DNA from: Candidatus Magasanikiibacteriota bacterium
GTDB lineage: Bacteria > Patescibacteriota > Patescibacteriia > Magasanikbacterales > UBA922
NCBI GenBank assembly: GCA_043809645.1
Contig: JBDROX010000044.1
Coordinates: 767 to 64,766 of the forward strand
Reading direction: 5' to 3'
Length of the DNA: 64,000 nt
Both the position numbers and the translations under genes were made by a program. Positions 4,588-30,630 of this stretch are shown here, in pieces (within the stretch, counting starts at the first letter, position 1; each line of letters starts with the position of its first letter). The notes below the pieces were generated by a model, which was not told the DNA's origin, searched no databases, and worked only from the letters and a program-made list of their open reading frames with translations.

Positions 4588-4962
4588 TTATTGATCAATA
4601 ACTTTGTCTGTTTTCAAAACCTCTCGTTTGTCTTCACCTGTCGGCACTTGCTTGATAACTAGAAACTTCACAATTTCGCTAGTATGATTGATGAAGGTGT
4701 GCGGGGTGCTTTCTGTCTCAATCAAATCACCAGCTTTGACGATCTGACTTTCGATTTTATCGCCGACCTTCCACTCAGCAGTAAGTTCGCCTTCGATAAT
4801 ATACAAACTTTCCAAAATCTTCTCGTGGTGATGCCAGGTTTGAGTTGACCCCGCCACCTGCTCGTTGTAGTGCAATTCATACTCTTGGCGAAGATAATAG
4901 CGAACGTTTGTCCCTTCGGGTTTTGAAACAGACAAAGATTCCTCACGTTTAATTATTTTCAT
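4588..4962 (-). CDS. Cupin-domain protein (124 aa)
   Basis: Cupin motifs (HHHEKILESLYIIEGEL ... GDLIETESTPHTF). Confidence 0.7.
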   Translation of the reverse strand: MKIIKREESLSVSKPEGTNVRYYLRQEYELHYNEQVAGSTQTWHHHEKILESLYIIEGELTAEWKVGDKIESQIVKAGDLIETESTPHTFINHTSEIVKFLVIKQVPTGEDKREVLKTDKVIDQ

Positions 4963-4998
4963 AGCACTAATCTTATTTTTTAGAAAAGCTTTTTGGCA

Positions 4999-5010
4999 AT
5001 TTCGTACAAC
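4999..5010. other. Isolated left-end box of the repeat family (ATTTC-GTACAAC = GTTGTAC-GAAAT on minus strand) with no partner arm: attI-like half-site at the head of the cassette array
   Basis: Only the 12-nt conserved end is present; the following sequence diverges from all elements. Confidence 0.4.
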
Positions 5011-5097
5011 TATGTATATACCAACTTCTAAATATTTTTGCTGAGTTATAGTATAATTTACTCAGATAATTCCATTCAGAAGGTGGTTATGAATGGA

Positions 5098-5125
5098 ATT
5101 ATATCATGTGTGATATTGTCGGCAA
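5098..5125 (-). promoter_or_regulatory. sigma70-like promoter on minus strand (TTGCCG-N16-TATAAT) pointing into the cassette array
   Basis: Perfect -10 hexamer and 4/6 -35 hexamer with 16-nt spacer, 136 nt upstream of the first cassette ORF. Confidence 0.45.
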
Positions 5126-5145
5126 ACTATCTTTATTATCAATTC

Positions 5146-5233
5146 TTATAAGCCTTCCCCCTAGCCTCTATATACTTCTTGGCTTCCAGTAGAGGGTTAT
5201 CTGCCTTGTAGATGCCTCGCCCAACAATAATAA
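5146..5233. repeat. Direct-repeat copy 1 of the 3' end of the pyrD-E-F fusion gene (encodes a variant C-terminus ...IIVGRGIYKADNPLLEAKKYIEARGKAYKN*)
   Basis: 62 bp identical plus about 30 bp similar to 6087-6174. Confidence 0.8.
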
Positions 5234-5280
5234 GGTATTGCAGTTATACAAGTCAGTTACTTAGTCATCAATTTAATTTT

Positions 5281-5984
5281 TTAATGAATACAATCTTTAT
5301 AAATTGAAGTGAGACCTGTAAATGAAAATAATTGATAATCAATTTCATTTAAAAATCTATGAATTTTTGTATTGCTATTTTGAAGAGATAGATCGTCGTC
5401 CTCAATGATAATTACTTTTGGTCTAAATTTTTCCCAATCATTACTCTTTAGGACATCAAAATTATTTCCTTCAACATCTATTGTTATGAAATCAATTTTT
5501 TGATTTCCTGGCATATGTTTACTTAAAATAATTTTCAACGGCAAGCATTTTATTGACCTTTCCTCAATAAAACGAATATATTTTTTTTAACATGATTTCT
5601 TTCTGTTCATGGTTAAAGGTGTTGCAACTTTTATGATTAAAGACATAATATTTTAAATTATTTTCATCCAAGGCAACACCATAATTTAAATTAATATCTC
5701 TTCTTCTGCTTCTATTAAAATATTTAATACTTTCAATATTGGGCTCAATATTTAGACCTTTCCAACCTTTCTTATAAAAAAAATTAGTATTAGAATAATG
5801 TTTGGGGTGGTATGCTCCAACATCAACATAAAAACCATCTTTTTTATTTCTAAAAAGATTTTCTATTAAAATGTCTTCACCAGATTGTGAATTTTTTTTG
5901 TAAATGTTCTAAAGAAAAAATTTTTGATATTTATAAGATTAAATAAATATTTATTTTCAATATTTATCAAAGACTCTTTTGCTC
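5281..5984 (-). pseudogene. FkbM-family methyltransferase disrupted by two 1-nt frameshifts, each in an A8/T8 homopolymer (about 5589 and about 5891)
   Basis: Three frame segments together give MKDRAKESLINIE...SQSGEDILIENLFRNKKDGFYVDVGAYHPKHYSNTNFF...KIDFITIDVEGNNFDVLK, characteristic of FkbM methyltransferases. Confidence 0.65.
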
Positions 5985-6067
5985 TATCTTTCATATTTTT
6001 TAATACTTCATTGAAAAAATAGAACGTGGCTAAATTATACTACTCTTGCTAGAGTAGTCAATACAAA

Positions 6068-8602
6068 TTATCTTCGAATTCTCTCCTTATATCCTCTCCA
6101 CCCAGCCTCTCTATACTTCTTGGCTTCCAGTAGAGGGTTATCTGCCTTGTAGATGCCTCGCCCAACAATAATAATGTCGCTGTCGTGCTCACCAATAATC
6201 TTCTCAGGAGTATTATATTGCTGACCGAGGTTATCTATGCCTGTATCCAGTTTAACACCTGGTGTCATGTTTAGAAAGCCTGGATCATCAAGCTGCTTCT
6301 TCATGGCGATGAAGCCAATTACAAAATCCTTATTCTTCCCAGCCATTTTCATTGTCTCCTCTGTATAACTTCCTGTCGCCAGGTTTCCACTTGAGCTCAT
6401 TTCAGATAGGAGGAGTAGGCCTCTGCCTTTTGGCATGCCGACTTCCCTGAGCCCGTCGATGATTCCTGGGCCTGGGACTGTGTGTGCGTTCACAATATCT
6501 GCCCAGTCAGAAATGTGGTACACACCTTTCTCATATTGCTGCTTCACAGTGTTTCCAATATCTGCAAATTTTCTGTCTTCGAAGATCATGAAGTTGTAGA
6601 TTTCTGCGAATCTCTTGAGTTCTGCTACGAGGTGTTCATCGAAGTCCTCGACAATGTCGATATGTGTTTTGAATAGACAGATTTCTGGGCCTAGCATATT
6701 GGCGAGGGTCAGGAGTTCGTACTTAGTCGTCACATCTGCTGCCACGCAGAGATTGGTTTTCTTGTCTTCCATGATGTTGAAGAGCCGTTTTGCACTCGGG
6801 TTTGTACAGAGCATTGCTCGGTCGCCGTAGGAAAGTCTTGTTTTATTAGGCTTACTTATTTTTTTAGGAGTTACCTGATTCTCTCGCAGAAAATTCTGAA
6901 CTCGGTCGTACATTTCTCTATCAATATTGTCTGCATTCAGGAGATTTGTAAGAAGTTCATCCATGGTGATTACAGCATGCGCCGTGTAACCTCGCTTTTC
7001 AATATTTTTTCTTCCACCATGTTGTCTGTCGAGGAGGACTACAATATCGTGGACACGGAGTCCTTCTGCCTCAAGTGGTTCCACTGTTTCAAAAACACTA
7101 GAGCCGCTAGTAATGAGGTCTTCGACCACAAGGCAAGTATTTCCTGTGTCAAAAGTACCCTCTATCGTTTGCTTCGTTCCATACACCTTCACTTCTTTCC
7201 TTCTCATGACCATTGGCTTGTTATGTGCCAGAGATAGTGCTGTGGCTATTGGGAGGGCTGTGTATGGGACACCACAGACACAGTCGAACTGGACATCATT
7301 TACCTTCTCCCACATCATGTCGGCGACCAGGGAAAGGATTTCTGGGTAGGAGACAATGACGCGTAGGTCAATATAGATAGGGGAGGTGATACCACTCTTC
7401 AGTGTGAACTCACCAAATTTGATAGCGTCGATCTCAAAGAGCTTTTGAATCAGAAATTCTTTTTTTGAGGCTATGAGTACTTGTTCAATAAGATCTGGCT
7501 TTAGTCCTACTTCGCTTGCCAGTCCTTCATGATATCTCATGGCAAGGTATGGATCCCACATCATACCAGTCGCGCTCATAGCTACGTCTGCACCGCGACC
7601 CAGCATTTCGTCGAAGTGTTCTGGCTTCGTGATTCCACCAACGCCAATGAGCGTGAGGTCGAGATGTTCTTCTTTGATAATCTTTCTTGCTTTTGAAATA
7701 AAGTCATAGGCGTGGTTTCTGATTGGTCCACCACAAACTCCGCTAGTCTCGCGACCTTCTCCAAGCGCCGGTTTTCCATTTTCATCAATCACTTTTCTTC
7801 CAATAGTATTGATACCACTAATTGCGCGTGCGCCACCTCTTGCTGCAGCCAAGAAGATGTCGCGCATGAATTCATTGTTTTCAAATACACCGACTTTGAT
7901 GATGAGTGGGATGTGTCCAATTTCTTTTGTAATCTTTGAGCAAATTTCTTCTACTGTATCTGGGTTTGTGTAGATACTTCCTTCTCCACTGCAGACATTT
8001 GGACAGGAGAAGTTCGCTTCTATGATTTTCGCTCCAGCATCTCTGGCAAGGGCTGCTGTCTTTACAAAGTCCTCTGTGAAGTCTTCTCCAGGAGTTGGTG
8101 TGCCGACGATAGAGACGACAAGTACTTGTCCGTCTCGAAGAGATGCGTTGGCTGCTTTGATATCTTTGATAAGAGTTTCGTTTCCAGAGCTTGGCATGCC
8201 AAAAGAATTCGTAATAGCAAAAGAATCCATTGAGTCAGTCTGGTGTGTTGTTTGTTGGAGTGGTGCATTATCGCTACCATCTAGATTTTCTGGAGCTATA
8301 TAGACAATATTCGGATGTGGGTGACCAGCATACTCTCGGTTTCGAATGGTTTTGTATGTGATGATATCGAACCCAAGGTGGGATGCGAGCGCGGTCCACT
8401 TTGACGTGAGGAGTGGGCCGGCTGGAACACCGATAGGAGATCGAACTTTGTAGCCCAGAAAATCAATGGCCGGTTTTTTTGATTTAGGTCTTTCTGGAAT
8501 GCTGCCTTCAAAAAAAGGACCATGCGCTGCGTTGTATTCGTAACTCTTGTGAATATCGTAGAGTGGGGGATTCTTTGGAAACCACTGCGGAATCTTGGTC
8601 AT
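6068..8602 (-). CDS. pyrDEF: Tri-functional fusion: class-1-type dihydroorotate dehydrogenase (PyrD) + orotate phosphoribosyltransferase (PyrE) + OMP decarboxylase (PyrF), 844 aa
   Basis: N-term DHOD motifs (GVPAGPL, NFSCPN with Cys base, GVGGI); middle OPRTase PRPP loop (LVVEDLITSGSS); C-term ODCase motifs (DRKFADIGNTV, IIIVGRGIY). Confidence 0.85.
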   Translation of the reverse strand: MTKIPQWFPKNPPLYDIHKSYEYNAAHGPFFEGSIPERPKSKKPAIDFLGYKVRSPIGVPAGPLLTSKWTALASHLGFDIITYKTIRNREYAGHPHPNIVYIAPENLDGSDNAPLQQTTHQTDSMDSFAITNSFGMPSSGNETLIKDIKAANASLRDGQVLVVSIVGTPTPGEDFTEDFVKTAALARDAGAKIIEANFSCPNVCSGEGSIYTNPDTVEEICSKITKEIGHIPLIIKVGVFENNEFMRDIFLAAARGGARAISGINTIGRKVIDENGKPALGEGRETSGVCGGPIRNHAYDFISKARKIIKEEHLDLTLIGVGGITKPEHFDEMLGRGADVAMSATGMMWDPYLAMRYHEGLASEVGLKPDLIEQVLIASKKEFLIQKLFEIDAIKFGEFTLKSGITSPIYIDLRVIVSYPEILSLVADMMWEKVNDVQFDCVCGVPYTALPIATALSLAHNKPMVMRRKEVKVYGTKQTIEGTFDTGNTCLVVEDLITSGSSVFETVEPLEAEGLRVHDIVVLLDRQHGGRKNIEKRGYTAHAVITMDELLTNLLNADNIDREMYDRVQNFLRENQVTPKKISKPNKTRLSYGDRAMLCTNPSAKRLFNIMEDKKTNLCVAADVTTKYELLTLANMLGPEICLFKTHIDIVEDFDEHLVAELKRFAEIYNFMIFEDRKFADIGNTVKQQYEKGVYHISDWADIVNAHTVPGPGIIDGLREVGMPKGRGLLLLSEMSSSGNLATGSYTEETMKMAGKNKDFVIGFIAMKKQLDDPGFLNMTPGVKLDTGIDNLGQQYNTPEKIIGEHDSDIIIVGRGIYKADNPLLEAKKYREAGWRGYKERIRR
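6087..6174. repeat. Direct-repeat copy 2 (native 3' end of the pyrD-E-F fusion gene)
   Basis: See 5146-5233. Confidence 0.8.
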
Positions 8603-24945: not shown

Positions 24946-25371
24946 TTAACCCTCAATTGTGATACCCATCTGTCTAGCTGTCCCTTCAATAGTTTTCATG
25001 GCGGCATCAATATCATTTGCATTCAGGTCTGGCATTTTTTTTTCTGCGATTTCCCTGACCTGTCCCTTTGTGATTTTCCCAGCTTTTTCTTTGAGTGGGT
25101 TTCCAGATCCTTTCTTCAGGCCTGCTGCCTTCAGGATCATAGAGCTTGCTGGAGCTACCTTTGTAATGAAGTCGAATGTTCGGTCTTCATACACATTGAT
25201 AACTACTGGGACGATCTCCCCTTTTTTGTCAGACGTAGCATTGTTGAATTGAGTGCAGAAGTCCTGGATATTCAGGCCATGCTGACCAAGTGCTGGGCCG
25301 ACTGGTGGGGCTGGGTTTGCAACGCCCCCTGGAATCTGGAGTTTGATTTGGGTCAATAATTTTTTTGGCAT
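24946..25371 (-). CDS. rplK: 50S ribosomal protein L11
   Basis: [22 protein letters not shown] motif. Confidence 0.9.
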
Positions 25372-25458
25372 AAGGTTGGTCAATGGTCAATGGACAATTG
25401 TCATCTGAAATAAATAGTGTCTATAGAGTGAGAAGCTGCTTTCGCACACCCTATTTCA

Positions 25459-25815
25459 TTATTTATTTAAGTATTTTATTAATGAATATATTTTTTTTGC
25501 AATTATTTCACTTTTGTTATATATGAAATTAAATCTATCTTTACTTATATATCCTTGATCAAGTGCGACATAACATGCAGCAATGACTTCATGCAATGAT
25601 GTTAACGACATTCTTAAGAACCTCGTAAAGTCTTTATCAGAATTTCTGTCACAACCTTCAGAAATGTTTAGGAGAATGGAGAGCGCTGCTCGGCGCAGTT
25701 GACTGGTAAGACTGAATTTTTCATCCGCAGGAAATTCTTTTGTAATTGTATATACTACATTCACAAAATTTCTTGCCAATTTCCATACTTCAAGGTTTTC
25801 AAATCTATAGACCAT
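25459..25815 (-). CDS. Four-helix-bundle protein (23S rRNA intervening-sequence protein family)
   Basis: EVWKLARNFVNVVY...SQLRRAALSILLNISEG pattern typical of TIGR02436-like proteins. Confidence 0.6.
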   Translation of the reverse strand: MVYRFENLEVWKLARNFVNVVYTITKEFPADEKFSLTSQLRRAALSILLNISEGCDRNSDKDFTRFLRMSLTSLHEVIAACYVALDQGYISKDRFNFIYNKSEIIAKKIYSLIKYLNK

Positions 25816-25836: not shown

Positions 25837-26382
25837 CTAGATCTTCTTCACTTGGAGTGCATCGAGCTCGACAGGGGTTTCTCTACCAAACATAGATACA
25901 AGTACTTTTACTTTTCCACGTGTTTCGTCAACATCAGAAACTTTTCCTTCGAAATTCTTGAACGGTCCATCAATAATTCGAACTGGGTCATCGATTTGTG
26001 TATCAATCTTATGCGTTGGATCTTCGACCCCCATTCTCTTCTGGAGAGAATCAACTTCTTTCTGATCAATTGGCGTTGGGGTGGTTCCTGACCCTACGAA
26101 GCCAGTCACATTCGGTGTGTTTCTGACAACATACCATGAGTCATCTGTTACAATCATCTCGACGAGGACGTATCCTGGAAAGATTTTTTCTTCAACCACG
26201 GTTCGTTTCCCGCCTTTGATTTTAATTTTCTTTTCTTTTGGGACAAGGACTTGGACAATCTTGTCCTGCATATCAAAAGAGTCGATACGCTGTTCGAGAT
26301 TTCTTTTTACATTTTCCTCGTATCCACTGTATGTATGGAGGACATACCAGCGTTTTCCGAGTTGGAGGGTTTGTTTTGCCAT
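25837..26382 (-). CDS. nusG: Transcription antiterminator NusG
   Basis: NGN and KOW domains (WYVLHTYSGYE ... FEGKV). Confidence 0.9.
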   Translation of the reverse strand: MAKQTLQLGKRWYVLHTYSGYEENVKRNLEQRIDSFDMQDKIVQVLVPKEKKIKIKGGKRTVVEEKIFPGYVLVEMIVTDDSWYVVRNTPNVTGFVGSGTTPTPIDQKEVDSLQKRMGVEDPTHKIDTQIDDPVRIIDGPFKNFEGKVSDVDETRGKVKVLVSMFGRETPVELDALQVKKI

Positions 26383-26391
26383 ATGGTTGGC

Positions 26392-26613
26392 CTACTTAAT
26401 GATGGCTTCGAGACCAAGATTGAAGATATAGTCGAGGACCCCGAAGAAGAGTGCAACACCGAGGGTGAGTGCAATTACGACAATAGAAAATGTCGTTGTT
26501 TGTTTCTTTGTAGGCCATACGACTTTTCGCATTTCTGCGTAGGCCTCCTTGATATATGTAATAAGTGCCTTAATTGGATTCTTTTTCATATTATCTCGTG
26601 TTCTTGTTTTCAA
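26392..26613 (-). CDS. secE: Preprotein translocase SecE
   Basis: Short protein with EMRKVVWPTKKQ and one C-terminal TM helix. Confidence 0.8.
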   Translation of the reverse strand: MKTRTRDNMKKNPIKALITYIKEAYAEMRKVVWPTKKQTTTFSIVVIALTLGVALFFGVLDYIFNLGLEAIIK

Positions 26614-26693
26614 GTATTTAAAAACGGCCCTGAGCCGAATGTGTCTATACTATAGATGAATTTATTTTTTTTGTCAAGTGGTGAGTGTGTGAT

Positions 26694-26723
26694 CCAAGTG
26701 CAGGCGGAAGAACCTGCACTTGG
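26694..26723. other. Perfect 11-bp-stem hairpin CCAAGTGCAGG-cggaagaa-CCTGCACTTGG at the left edge of the high-GC island
   Basis: Read from sequence; no adjacent T-run in either orientation. Confidence 0.6.
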
Positions 26724-26745
26724 ATGCGTTGTGACCTTGGTCTGC

Positions 26746-27534
26746 CTAGTCCATCCCAAGCTGGGACGGATCGGCGAGGATCTCGGCCATGGTCGTGGTG
26801 GTTGTGCTGAACGGGAGAACACTCAGGACTTCGGGGGAGACCGTATGAACGGCATCTACCAGCAATCCAAGTACTCCAATGACGTGCACGAGGGCGCTGC
26901 TCTCGACGTGCCAGACCATCTCATTCCCATCGAGCTTCACCAGCATGCCATCGTGCGGTACTGCCTCGGTGATGTCAGGAGCCTGGTTCACGTAGTTCGG
27001 CCAGAAGAAGTCGTAGACATCTTTGACCTCGTATTTCCAGTTCTCTCCGTAGAGCTGTGCGGCGACGTCTTCATTCGTGATCTTCGCCAGTGTGTTACCT
27101 GGGAGAACTGCGAAAACATTTGTCATTCCAACAACCTTCACTAGATAAGCCCCGGGTCGGAAGTTGATGCCAAAGGGTGCTTCATCCGGACTTGGATAGT
27201 TGTCGAAACAAGTCCAGTGGATTTTGATGATCCCACTGAAGTCCTGGTACCATGACAAGTGCACGTTCTGGTGAGGGAAGTACATTCGTTCACCAAACTT
27301 GTTGATGGTGAAGACCGACGTCTGAGTCGGAAATTTGTACAGGTCACCTGGCTCGAGCACAGGGCATGACTCTTGTGCCACGTCGAGCTCGGTCGAGTCC
27401 GTGGTGTCGACCTCAGTCACGTCCGGAGACGGGCAGTTGATGTTGTTCGTGACCTCATAGCAACCGCTAGAGGCCTTGTCAAGAATTTTGCATGTGGTTG
27501 ATTCTTGACAAGGCTCCTGTTTTTTGCTATACAT
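26746..27534 (-). CDS. Hypothetical protein in high-GC island (start taken at internal MYSKKQ; track ORF extends to 27705)
   Basis: Long ORF; about 55-60% GC versus about 40% in flanks; no recognisable domain. Confidence 0.45.
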   Translation of the reverse strand: MYSKKQEPCQESTTCKILDKASSGCYEVTNNINCPSPDVTEVDTTDSTELDVAQESCPVLEPGDLYKFPTQTSVFTINKFGERMYFPHQNVHLSWYQDFSGIIKIHWTCFDNYPSPDEAPFGINFRPGAYLVKVVGMTNVFAVLPGNTLAKITNEDVAAQLYGENWKYEVKDVYDFFWPNYVNQAPDITEAVPHDGMLVKLDGNEMVWHVESSALVHVIGVLGLLVDAVHTVSPEVLSVLPFSTTTTTMAEILADPSQLGMD

Positions 27535-27577
27535 AACACAAATAAAAGTCACACCAGGGTGTGTACAGGAGGAATAT

Positions 27578-27865
27578 ATGAAGGCATTCACCGGCGAGTC
27601 TGTTCGGCTGCTCGCCGAAGGCAGGATCGTGAGTGTACGGTTTGCTCTGCCGGATGGTAGGAGGGCTGCCAACGGGACCATACTTCCCGGTAGGTATGAG
27701 TTCACTGCCGAGAAGGAGGGGGAGATCCGTGTGACTCGTGGAGTGCTCTACATTAACGATGATCGCGTCGATCCCACGACGTCTCCATTCCGTGCCCATG
27801 CCGGGCAGACGCTCGTTATCCAGTGCCTGCTCGAAGTCGCCACCTGTCTCTGCTACTTCGGGTAG
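27578..27865 (+). CDS. Hypothetical small protein (95 aa) in high-GC island; consensus AGGAGG Shine-Dalgarno 8 nt upstream of ATG
   Basis: GTACAGGAGGAATATATG at 27562-27580; divergent to the minus-strand island gene. Confidence 0.5.
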   Translation: MKAFTGESVRLLAEGRIVSVRFALPDGRRAANGTILPGRYEFTAEKEGEIRVTRGVLYINDDRVDPTTSPFRAHAGQTLVIQCLLEVATCLCYFG

Positions 27866-27954
27866 GTGGTAGAGGCTAGCACAACACCCATCGTACCACC
27901 CCGATATGGTTCGGGTGATTGTCAAAAAAATAAACAGGGAGGAATCGGGGACAA

Positions 27955-27996
27955 TCAAAAACACTCGTTATACGACGAGTGTTTTTTGTTTTGATC
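27955..27996. terminator. Bidirectional rho-independent terminator AAAACACTCGT-tatac-GACGAGTGTTTT flanked by T/A runs
   Basis: 11-bp stem; T-runs on both strands. Confidence 0.75.
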
Positions 27997-27999
27997 TCT

Positions 28000-28545
28000 C
28001 TATTTTTTTCTCAGTGTAATTTTTTCCGGAATGTAATGATCTATGGTCGAATCATCAATGAGTGTCCAGACAAGAGATTTCCTGTCTTCACTCAATGTTA
28101 TAAAAGCAACGACTTCTGCATCATGATAGCAGCTCTTCATATTCAGCCTAGCTGTTTTCACTTTCTCACCTTCTGGTCCCTCATCTGTGATGAATCCATC
28201 AATTGATGGGCCGTTGAGGTCACCCTCGAGGCAGCAGTCGATCCTATTGGCATTTTCTGTGAGTCCACAATGGTATCCTGTGAGAACACCGTCTCCCTCA
28301 TAGAGCTCGGCAGTGAAGCTAATGCCACCTGCTTCACCAGACCACATCCCTTCGAATGGTCTGTAGGGGAGGATCTCAACCAGTGTTTTGATAGTGTCAG
28401 ATTCTGTAATTGTTATATTTATCTCTTCTGCCTGATGTACTGGTTCAGGCGCTATAGTATTACTGTCTTTCTTTTTACCAAATATACAGCCAGACAGTGT
28501 GAGGAGAGAGAAAACGAGGAGGAGCGATGTGATGGTAGTTCTCAT
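28000..28545 (-). CDS. Hypothetical lipoprotein (181 aa)
   Basis: Signal peptide ending LTLSGC lipobox. Confidence 0.65.
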   Translation of the reverse strand: MRTTITSLLLVFSLLTLSGCIFGKKKDSNTIAPEPVHQAEEINITITESDTIKTLVEILPYRPFEGMWSGEAGGISFTAELYEGDGVLTGYHCGLTENANRIDCCLEGDLNGPSIDGFITDEGPEGEKVKTARLNMKSCYHDAEVVAFITLSEDRKSLVWTLIDDSTIDHYIPEKITLRKK

Positions 28546-28548
28546 ACG

Positions 28549-29982
<1,434 letters not shown>

Positions 29983-30630
29983 CTACTGGCGCAGGTGATC
30001 AATGATTGTCTTCCATTCGTAGTCGAGTGTGTCAAAAATTTCTGCATCTGGCTTGAATGAAATTGTAGTTCCAGTAAACTTTGTTTTTCCAACTGCTCTT
30101 ACATTCTTTACGGCTTTTCCACGTTTGTATTCCTGAATCCAAATCTTTCCGTCTCTGTGAACTTCTGCTTTTACATCTACAGAAAGTGCATTTACAACAG
30201 AAACACCCACGCCGTGGAGACCGCCAGATACTTTGTACACAGTGTCACCGAATTTTCCACCGGCATGCAGCTTTGTCATGACCAGCTGGAGCGCACTGAC
30301 TTTCATTTTAGGATGAATACCAACCGGGATGCCACGACCGTTGTCAGTGACTGAAACCCAGTTTCCTGGAAGAAGCTTGATGGTGATATCTGTACAGTAC
30401 CCTGCCATGGCTTCATCGAATGCATTGTCTACCACTTCCCAAATCATGTGGTGGAGTCCGCGTTCGCCAGTCGAACCGATGTACATTCCAGGGCGCTTCC
30501 TTACTGCCTCGAGTCCTTCGAGTACGGTAATGGATTCTGCATCATATTTGGCATCCTTTTTCTTTGCAGGTGTTTTTTCTACCACTCCTTTACTGCTCTT
30601 TATTTCCTTTTTTTCAATCTTTTTTGGCAT
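29983..30630 (-). CDS. gyrB: DNA gyrase subunit B, N-terminal ATPase part, ending at in-frame TAG 29983-29985
   Basis: GHKL ATPase motifs (VVDNAFDEAMAG, DNGRGIPV, GLHGVGVSVVNALS). Confidence 0.85.
   Translation of the reverse strand: MPKKIEKKEIKSSKGVVEKTPAKKKDAKYDAESITVLEGLEAVRKRPGMYIGSTGERGLHHMIWEVVDNAFDEAMAGYCTDITIKLLPGNWVSVTDNGRGIPVGIHPKMKVSALQLVMTKLHAGGKFGDTVYKVSGGLHGVGVSVVNALSVDVKAEVHRDGKIWIQEYKRGKAVKNVRAVGKTKFTGTTISFKPDAEIFDTLDYEWKTIIDHLRQ

Follow-up and report, generated by a model that had tools for sequence, protein, structure and literature searches.

An apparently old two-gene islet of probable foreign origin in the variable gyrB-secE gap of a Candidatus Magasanikbacteria genome

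Introduction

The gap between gyrB and secE in a metagenome-assembled genome of Candidatus Magasanikbacteria (contig JBDROX010000044.1; the whole 64-kb stretch analysed is termed the window) holds a short GC-rich islet at about positions 26,690-27,955. The islet appears to be a genuine block of two genes of foreign origin, acquired long ago and lodged in a gap that varies among relatives; a probability of roughly 0.6 is attached to this reading. The two genes are open reading frame (ORF) A and the divergently oriented ORF B, termed ppnP. The donor would have been an organism of higher GC content with Shine-Dalgarno starts, and the block would have arrived before the split from the lineage of the organism represented by a second contig, L003, and would since have been kept under purifying selection. 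The features of the islet are as follows.

26692..26725, no strand: 13-bp perfect stem-loop (arms 26692-26704 and 26713-26725, 8-nt loop), left edge of the islet
26746..27534, minus strand: ORF A, 262 aa from the annotated ATG; the frame is open to 27705, 319 codons from a GTG
27473..27514, no strand: palindrome GCCTTGTCAAGAAT-N14-ATTCTTGACAAGGC, 14-bp perfect arms with a 14-nt spacer, divergent control region
27505..27533, plus strand: putative ppnP promoter TTGACA-17 nt-TATACA, read by eye; the ORF A start codon overlaps the -10 box
27567..27572, plus strand: Shine-Dalgarno sequence AGGAGG, 5 nt before the ppnP ATG, foreign-like in this host
27578..27865, plus strand: ORF B, 95 aa, a divergent protein of the PpnP / DUF1255 family by sequence
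27957..27986, no strand: bidirectional intrinsic terminator of ppnP (plus) and a lipoprotein gene (minus), right edge of the islet

Composition and translation signals

The GC content of 26690-27996 is 53.0%, and the richest 1.2-kb segment, 26701-27900, reaches 54.2% (z ~3.75). Segments of this size across the whole 64 kb have a mean of 41.6% and a standard deviation of 3.3%, and the runner-up has 47.7%. Local peaks over 300 bp go up to 57%, and ppnP is at 59%. An earlier interpretation made from the letters alone (the sequence-only reading) had described a rise to 55-60%; the rise is there, but the figure was slightly high.

More telling is the codon use. Raw GC content at third codon positions (GC3) is 0.667 in ORF A and 0.677 in ORF B, compared with 0.383 +/- 0.064 in 60 other ORFs. 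A corrected GC3 takes its expectation from the amino acids of each gene and the synonymous codon choice of the host; on this basis ORF A has 0.652 observed versus 0.366 expected (z = 9.6) and ORF B has 0.670 versus 0.360 (z = 6.4), where z among native genes has a standard deviation of 2.2 and a maximum of 4.8. The two genes thus do not match the codon use of the rest of the genome after amino-acid correction, and since the excess survives that correction, the codon-usage objection that the sequence-only reading had raised against its own proposal falls away.

The translation signals point in the same direction. A Shine-Dalgarno core is found in 2 of 45 genes in the window; ppnP is one of these and has the only strong one. 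This AGGAGG had been noticed before, but with a spacer of 8 nt, where it is in fact 5. Together with the two GC3 values, a Shine-Dalgarno start in a genome poor in such starts supports the proposed origin from a higher-GC donor. The ortholog of ORF A in L003 has the Shine-Dalgarno sequence AAGGAG. The thought that ORF A of the window, having no ribosome-binding site, is untranslated was dropped, as native genes also have no Shine-Dalgarno sequence. An orphan GGGAGG, followed by neither a start codon nor an ORF, is present at 27936-27941, just before the bidirectional terminator; it may be a remnant of the start of a lost cargo gene.

Age of the islet and the L003 contig

How old is the islet? 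A NusG scan of species-representative genomes gave 80 related loci, about 60 of which keep gyrB, the gap, secE, nusG and rplK. Prominent among the comparisons is L003, a 1,200-bp metagenome contig that was assembled independently from a different sequencing run (SRR26275510) and on which an ortholog of ORF A and a homologous hairpin adjoin the secE promoter as they do in the window. Over 82 nt of secE promoter (TTGACA-17-TATAGT) and leader, L003 and the window are 89% identical. The core of ORF A has 66% protein identity, a synonymous divergence (dS) of ~1.6 and a dN/dS (nonsynonymous to synonymous ratio) of 0.15; because it is shared at this distance and with this ratio, the ORF A half of the islet is old and under purifying selection. 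The left junction is real, as it is reproduced in L003. The L003 ortholog has a GC3 of 0.79 and its 255 nt of flank is 47% GC. The gene looks like part of an islet in L003 too, the flank being too short for certainty.

The proposal that the acquisition was recent is therefore not supported. Nor is the proposal of a chimeric assembly join, since the gyrB...secE-nusG-rplK order is found in about 60 related genomes and L003 repeats the junction on the secE side. Exact-sequence look-ups of the SecE, NusG and ORF A proteins of the window gave no record.

Other relatives are few. Homologues of ppnP were found in none of the 80 related loci, and tblastn found none of the lipoprotein gene next to the islet. 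A weak match to the ORF A family (26-28% identity) is present in 4 of the 80, and L003 is the sole close relative.

ORF A, a member of a rare protein family

The minus-strand frame predicted at 263-319 aa was found (262 aa, or 319 codons when read from the GTG). It has no match in Pfam or NCBIfam; the earlier statement of 'no known domain' therefore holds for ORF A, but not for the 95-aa ORF, which passes the Pfam Ppnp threshold. A profile search of 5.8 billion protein clusters gave ~20 relatives, the closest of which, P0002, is 52% identical and is the protein on L003. Judged by these sequence relationships, ORF A is a member of a rare, predicted secreted-protein family of candidate-phyla-radiation bacteria. 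In relatives the module of ~200 residues follows a signal peptide (it spans residues ~58-255 of the window protein) and often shares its polypeptide with FN3, Big_1/invasin, trypsin, M6-like or subtilase domains. Homologues P0002, P0003, P0004 and those of loci L037 and L055 start with hydrophobic leaders. The window protein has a hydrophilic start, MYSKKQEPCQESTTCKILDK, and no signal peptide, and is the only member without a hydrophobic leader. Alignment with P0002 reveals that the leader is replaced and that the palindrome occupies that segment, overlapping codons ~7-21 of ORF A, where homologues encode the signal peptide. A palindromic promoter region would here have taken the place of the signal-peptide segment.

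What might the protein do? An AlphaFold2 (AF2) model has a mean predicted local distance difference test score (pLDDT) of 72, with residues 1-51 disordered followed by three consecutive beta-beta-beta-alpha-beta-alpha units; a repeat at the sequence level is weakly visible. The best fold match in the PDB is to the periplasmic domains of EccB, and it is weak (Foldseek E = 3e-3, probability 0.6, template modelling score 0.18). The EccB repeats consist of four strands and two helices and are PlyCB-like (PMC4769845). As modelled, ORF A would resemble these repeats of ESX type VII secretion, and the cell-wall binding fold of PlyCB, in its tandem units of ~55-65 residues with four strands and two helices and in belonging to a family of predicted extracytoplasmic proteins. 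However, ORF A has neither the EccB core domain nor a membrane anchor nor nearby ESX genes, and the fusion partners of its family are instead FN3, Big_1, trypsin, M6 and subtilase domains. A search of BFVD folds gave only weak matches to uncharacterised phage proteins. On the model, ORF A would be a cell-envelope or extracellular binding module made up of three EccB-like repeats; an envelope-binding role is plausible but unproven.

A subfamily of ~275 aa occupies the position between gyrB and secE, immediately following gyrB, in Uhrbacteria-like genomes and others, where it has native GC content and no Shine-Dalgarno sequence. ORF A of the window has 36-40% identity to multidomain members elsewhere versus 22-28% to this syntenic subfamily. 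A giant ORF of ~1,250 aa that contains the ORF A module is present in L060 (2513-6283, minus strand), with a raised GC3 of 0.57 versus a locus GC of 0.435.

ORF B, a divergent PpnP-family protein

The 95-aa product of ORF B matches Pfam PF06865 (Ppnp) with 27.7 bits, above the gathering cut-off of 25 (E = 3.5e-6, residues 14-62); against the NCBIfam PRK10579 equivalog it has 12.2 bits and does not reach the cut-off of 143. An exhaustive phmmer search of 1.84 billion representatives gave three true relatives of 31-41% identity, the nearest at 41% over 66 residues. All three score 49-55 bits for Pfam Ppnp, and the cluster of one takes its name from a Patescibacteria genome. Long, multi-stretch phmmer matches were rejected as spurious, being to WD40 or MBG repeat proteins. 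Against the PDB, the PpnP chains are at E = 0.2-1 and the DUF1255 entry 3EO6 is at E = 0.025. A single-sequence AF2 model is all-beta (pLDDT 61); it is too poor for use and its Foldseek matches are meaningless.

From its sequence, then, ORF B is a divergent member of the PpnP family. It is similar to the PpnP (YaiE, DUF1255) pyrimidine/purine nucleoside phosphorylase of PF06865 in having a single domain of ~95 aa, predicted to be all-beta, and in the G-x-V-x-S, PG-x-Y-x-F and C-terminal Y-x-C motifs, which are common to the three true relatives. It differs in being very divergent, in aligning mainly over the N-terminal half and in falling far under the equivalog cut-off. ORF B would be a PpnP-family cupin, probably functioning as a nucleoside phosphorylase in nucleoside salvage, a role taken from family membership only.

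Hairpins, palindrome and terminator

The stem-loop at the left edge of the islet had been put at 11 bp (26694-26723); it is real, and longer, with a perfect stem of 13 bp. It starts 20 nt past the ORF A stop codon, and its RNA fold has -27.2 kcal/mol (z = -5.0). With no U-tract (no T-run), it fails the U-tract rule and so falls outside the textbook definition of an intrinsic terminator. It probably represents a 3' end, stabiliser or insulator that would separate ORF A from the secE promoter. The alignment places a hairpin of L003 at the equivalent position; both partners differ in five of its pairs, yet the pairing is kept. Such compensatory changes show the hairpin to be a selected structure; they do not indicate its role.

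At the right edge, the bidirectional terminator placed at 27955-27996 is confirmed at 27957-27986. Like known intrinsic terminators, it has a GC-containing stem, here of 12-13 bp, with an A-run before it and a T-run after it. By consensus rules it scores on both strands: it is reported on the plus strand, and the A-run provides the mirror-image site on the minus strand. It would close both ppnP and the adjoining lipoprotein gene.

The palindrome at 27473-27514, missed in the sequence-only reading, has z = -3.8 to -4.4 and carries TTGACA on both strands; ORF A and ppnP would diverge from it. The putative ppnP promoter is not reported by the consensus scan because its -10 box ends in A.

A diversity-generating retroelement target was also looked for and rejected: there is no template/variable repeat pair, and nothing in the islet is repeated elsewhere in the window.

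The gyrB-secE gap

Is the gap itself a favoured site? Among relatives its length is anywhere between 72 bp and 5.2 kb. Of the 39 loci whose gap is 500 bp or longer, 10 have their locus-wide GC maximum inside it, where ~4 are expected by length (p = 0.003), and high-GC islands (z >= 3) have a density of 0.32 per kb in the gap versus 0.032 per kb outside. A uniform survey of ORFs in 60 related loci plus the window gave high-GC3 ORFs in 12/63 cases in the gap versus 15/967 outside (odds ratio 15, p = 8e-9), the comparison regions being conserved housekeeping neighbourhoods rather than whole genomes, and start codons being called crudely. The Shine-Dalgarno motif accompanies 15 of the 27 high-GC3 ORFs (56%) versus 72 of 1003 others (7%; odds ratio 16, p = 2e-10). 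This enrichment is not an artefact of GC content, because the background rate of the motif inside high-GC3 ORFs is 7.5%. As high-GC relatives in the clade rarely use the motif, the donors are probably outside the clade. The same gap in many related species would seem to harbour unrelated high-GC3 ORFs with Shine-Dalgarno sites; the cargo differs and is unrelated between species, and is mostly without Pfam matches.

Examples of gap ORFs stand out. One in L009 (7799-8458) is ~70% GC in a genome of 44% GC, one in L087 (7751-8230) has a GC3 of 0.89 (z = 16) and a lipoprotein-like one in L022 (4989-5426) has a GC3 of 0.83. These three have no Pfam match where tested.

Could the gap be a preferred site at which Patescibacteria poor in Shine-Dalgarno starts capture, accumulate and retain genes of higher-GC organisms that use them, possibly their hosts? 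This generalisation is distinctly unlikely as matters stand. Active targeting to the gap, e.g. via hairpins or nearness to the replication origin, might be involved.

Origin of the islet

The islet has much in common with horizontally acquired islets: atypical GC content, codon use and translation signal, a patchy occurrence in related genomes, and a place between two conserved blocks, in a gap of widely differing size. It departs from typical islets in having no integrase, tRNA target or direct repeats, in being only 1.27 kb and old, and in that the family of one of its genes is also native to the gap in other lineages.

Several observations weigh against a foreign origin. The ORF A family is found in the same gap in Uhrbacteria-like genomes, with native GC content and no Shine-Dalgarno sequence, so the position could be ancestral and not acquired. 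GC3 is still 0.65 here and 0.79 in L003 despite saturated dS, an uneasy fit with simple decay, as drift to the GC content of the host would have lowered it. With only 255 nt of L003 flank known, the background GC of that genome is uncertain. No donor came to light: the islet, searched as DNA and as protein, had no counterpart among phages and plasmids, scans of IMG/VR with alignments of ORF A and of PpnP yielded no relatives, and scans of JGI metagenomes with a 25-mer of the secE leader and the ORF A/P0002 alignment found nothing. Signs of mobility are likewise missing: no tRNA lies within 12 kb, the borders have no direct repeats, and the neighbours are housekeeping genes, with neither an integrase nor a recombinase among them. 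Two accounts offer themselves. In one, a foreign copy took the place of a native one in the gap or came to sit with it; in the other, the position is ancestral and the composition changed locally.

The second of these would make ORF A a vertically inherited, ancestral occupant of the gap, its GC3 raised locally, whether through selection on the mRNA or through a process such as GC-biased gene conversion at a recombination hotspot. It draws on the presence of the ORF A family in the same gap in L037, L055, L084-L087 and one JGI contig, on the retention of high GC3 in both orthologs at dS ~1.6 and on the recurrence of high GC in the gap across species. However, the other family members in the gap have GC3 of 0.40-0.50 (locus GC 0.44-0.48) and no Shine-Dalgarno sequence, the high-GC3 ORFs carry a Shine-Dalgarno motif unused by the clade, which mutational bias would not make, and ORF A of the window is nearer the multidomain members than the syntenic subfamily. 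Vertical descent is thus considered unlikely.

Could the block instead have come lately from a higher-GC donor, with no time to change? The strong GC3 excess, the sharp borders and the intact, strong Shine-Dalgarno sequence of ppnP are what would be expected, as is a ppnP with no relative above 41% identity and no homologue in related loci. But L003 has ORF A, the hairpin and the secE junction as well, at a dS of ~1.6 and with compensatory changes in the hairpin, and the GC3 of ppnP equals that of ORF A, which fits a shared history. A late arrival is quite improbable.

A mobile gene cassette, integron-like or of a new kind, with hairpins as recombination sites for a site-specific enzyme would account for strong hairpins at both ends and for gap cargo that differs between species. 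It could also call on an A/T-rich inverted match of 11-12 nt (26661-26677 and 27919-27934) that brackets the islet almost exactly. That match is probably due to chance, as its left copy is the -35/upstream region of the secE promoter and is not conserved in L003, and terminal inverted repeats of a mobile element were rejected on the same grounds. No integrase or recombinase is nearby, the hairpins of relatives share no sequence and resemble ordinary A-stem-T terminators, and the arm sequences are found nowhere else in the window. Integron cassettes have an attC-type imperfect palindrome and an integrase, whereas the islet has perfect stems with no core shared among loci. A cassette origin is very unlikely, and a tRNA-targeted island was rejected, as the islet has no tRNA and no Rfam element.

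That a fragment of a higher-GC organism was wrongly joined into the contig is hardly credible: the source is a metagenome-assembled genome, the in-frame stop in gyrB, 2 kb away, may reflect a consensus error and the right border has no independent confirmation, but both flanks are native and collinear, in the order of ~60 related genomes, so that only a clean 1.27-kb insertion-type error and not a join could give this layout, the left junction (ORF A, hairpin and secE promoter) is repeated in a separate sequencing run, and the borders coincide with a promoter and a terminator rather than with a repeat.

Gene layout around the islet

The neighbouring features of the native sequence are:

26392..26589, minus strand: secE, context of native composition; Pfam SecE 67 bits, corrected GC3 z = 1.0
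26649..26677, minus strand: secE promoter TTGACA-17 nt-TATAGT, left edge of native sequence
28000..28545, minus strand: lipoprotein-like gene with leader MRTTITSLLLVFSLLTLSGC, context of native composition; corrected GC3 z = 1.1

On the minus strand, rplK (24946-25383), a 23S-rRNA-IVP-like gene (25459-25815), nusG (25837-26382) and secE lie in order; beyond secE come the islet, the lipoprotein-like gene and gyrB (28549-30630). The position between secE and a lipoprotein gene given in the sequence-only reading is thus correct. The first gene of the conserved secE-nusG-rplK block is secE, and the order is common to ~60 related loci. Its promoter is the sole 11/12 consensus match in the region. 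The secE leader (26590-26645, minus strand) has a small hairpin, CGGCTCAGGGCCG, followed by T5 and then AAATACTTGAA. This core, which recurs in L003, L007, L011, L076 and L018 and matches nothing in Rfam, may constitute a leader or attenuator element for secE-nusG.

The gene between nusG and rplK (minus strand, 31% GC) encodes a 23S-rRNA-intervening-sequence / bAvd-like four-helix bundle, with 118 bits as 23S_rRNA_IVP versus 25 bits as bAvd-like. Homologues are at the same place in L005, L024, L056 and L079, and neither a reverse transcriptase nor a repeat pair was seen by it. A single in-frame TAG is found in gyrB (29983-29985, minus strand), which is otherwise intact across 693 codons. The residue at this position is Gln in most relatives, which makes a CAG-to-TAG change likely, and His, Tyr or Thr in a few. 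The TAG may stem from an error in the consensus, vary within the population or be a true nonsense mutation. At ~30.7 kb the coding strand changes from minus to plus, and from ~32 kb GC skew is positive; a replication origin ~3 kb from the islet, considered on these grounds, was rejected as no DnaA-box cluster was found.

Elsewhere in the window, no stretch apart from the islet deviates more in tetranucleotide use than 4900-6100, which is AT-rich and whose ORFs are all short, one of them an 87-aa fragment. An intergenic region contains, at 2219-2269, a perfect (TTAG) x 12.8 microsatellite. An 844-aa ORF (6068-8602, minus strand) resembles, by eye, a fusion of dihydroorotate dehydrogenase-like, phosphoribosyltransferase and orotidine monophosphate (OMP)-decarboxylase-like units.

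Significance

Taken alone, the islet would be an ordinary feature, a small gene pair acquired horizontally long ago. Its value is in the wider pattern: in a clade of uncultured bacteria with reduced genomes and few Shine-Dalgarno starts, two independent marks, high GC3 and a strong Shine-Dalgarno sequence, would distinguish foreign genes, and these pile up in the gyrB-secE gap. This double mark offers a simple means of following gene flow into these organisms, and it may help in guessing at donors or hosts. The cargo of the islet, putatively an enzyme of nucleoside-salvage type and a module for envelope binding, fits a lifestyle of scavenging and surface contact. If the gap is indeed a capture site, the composition and start signals of its cargo could point to the hosts of these uncultured episymbionts.

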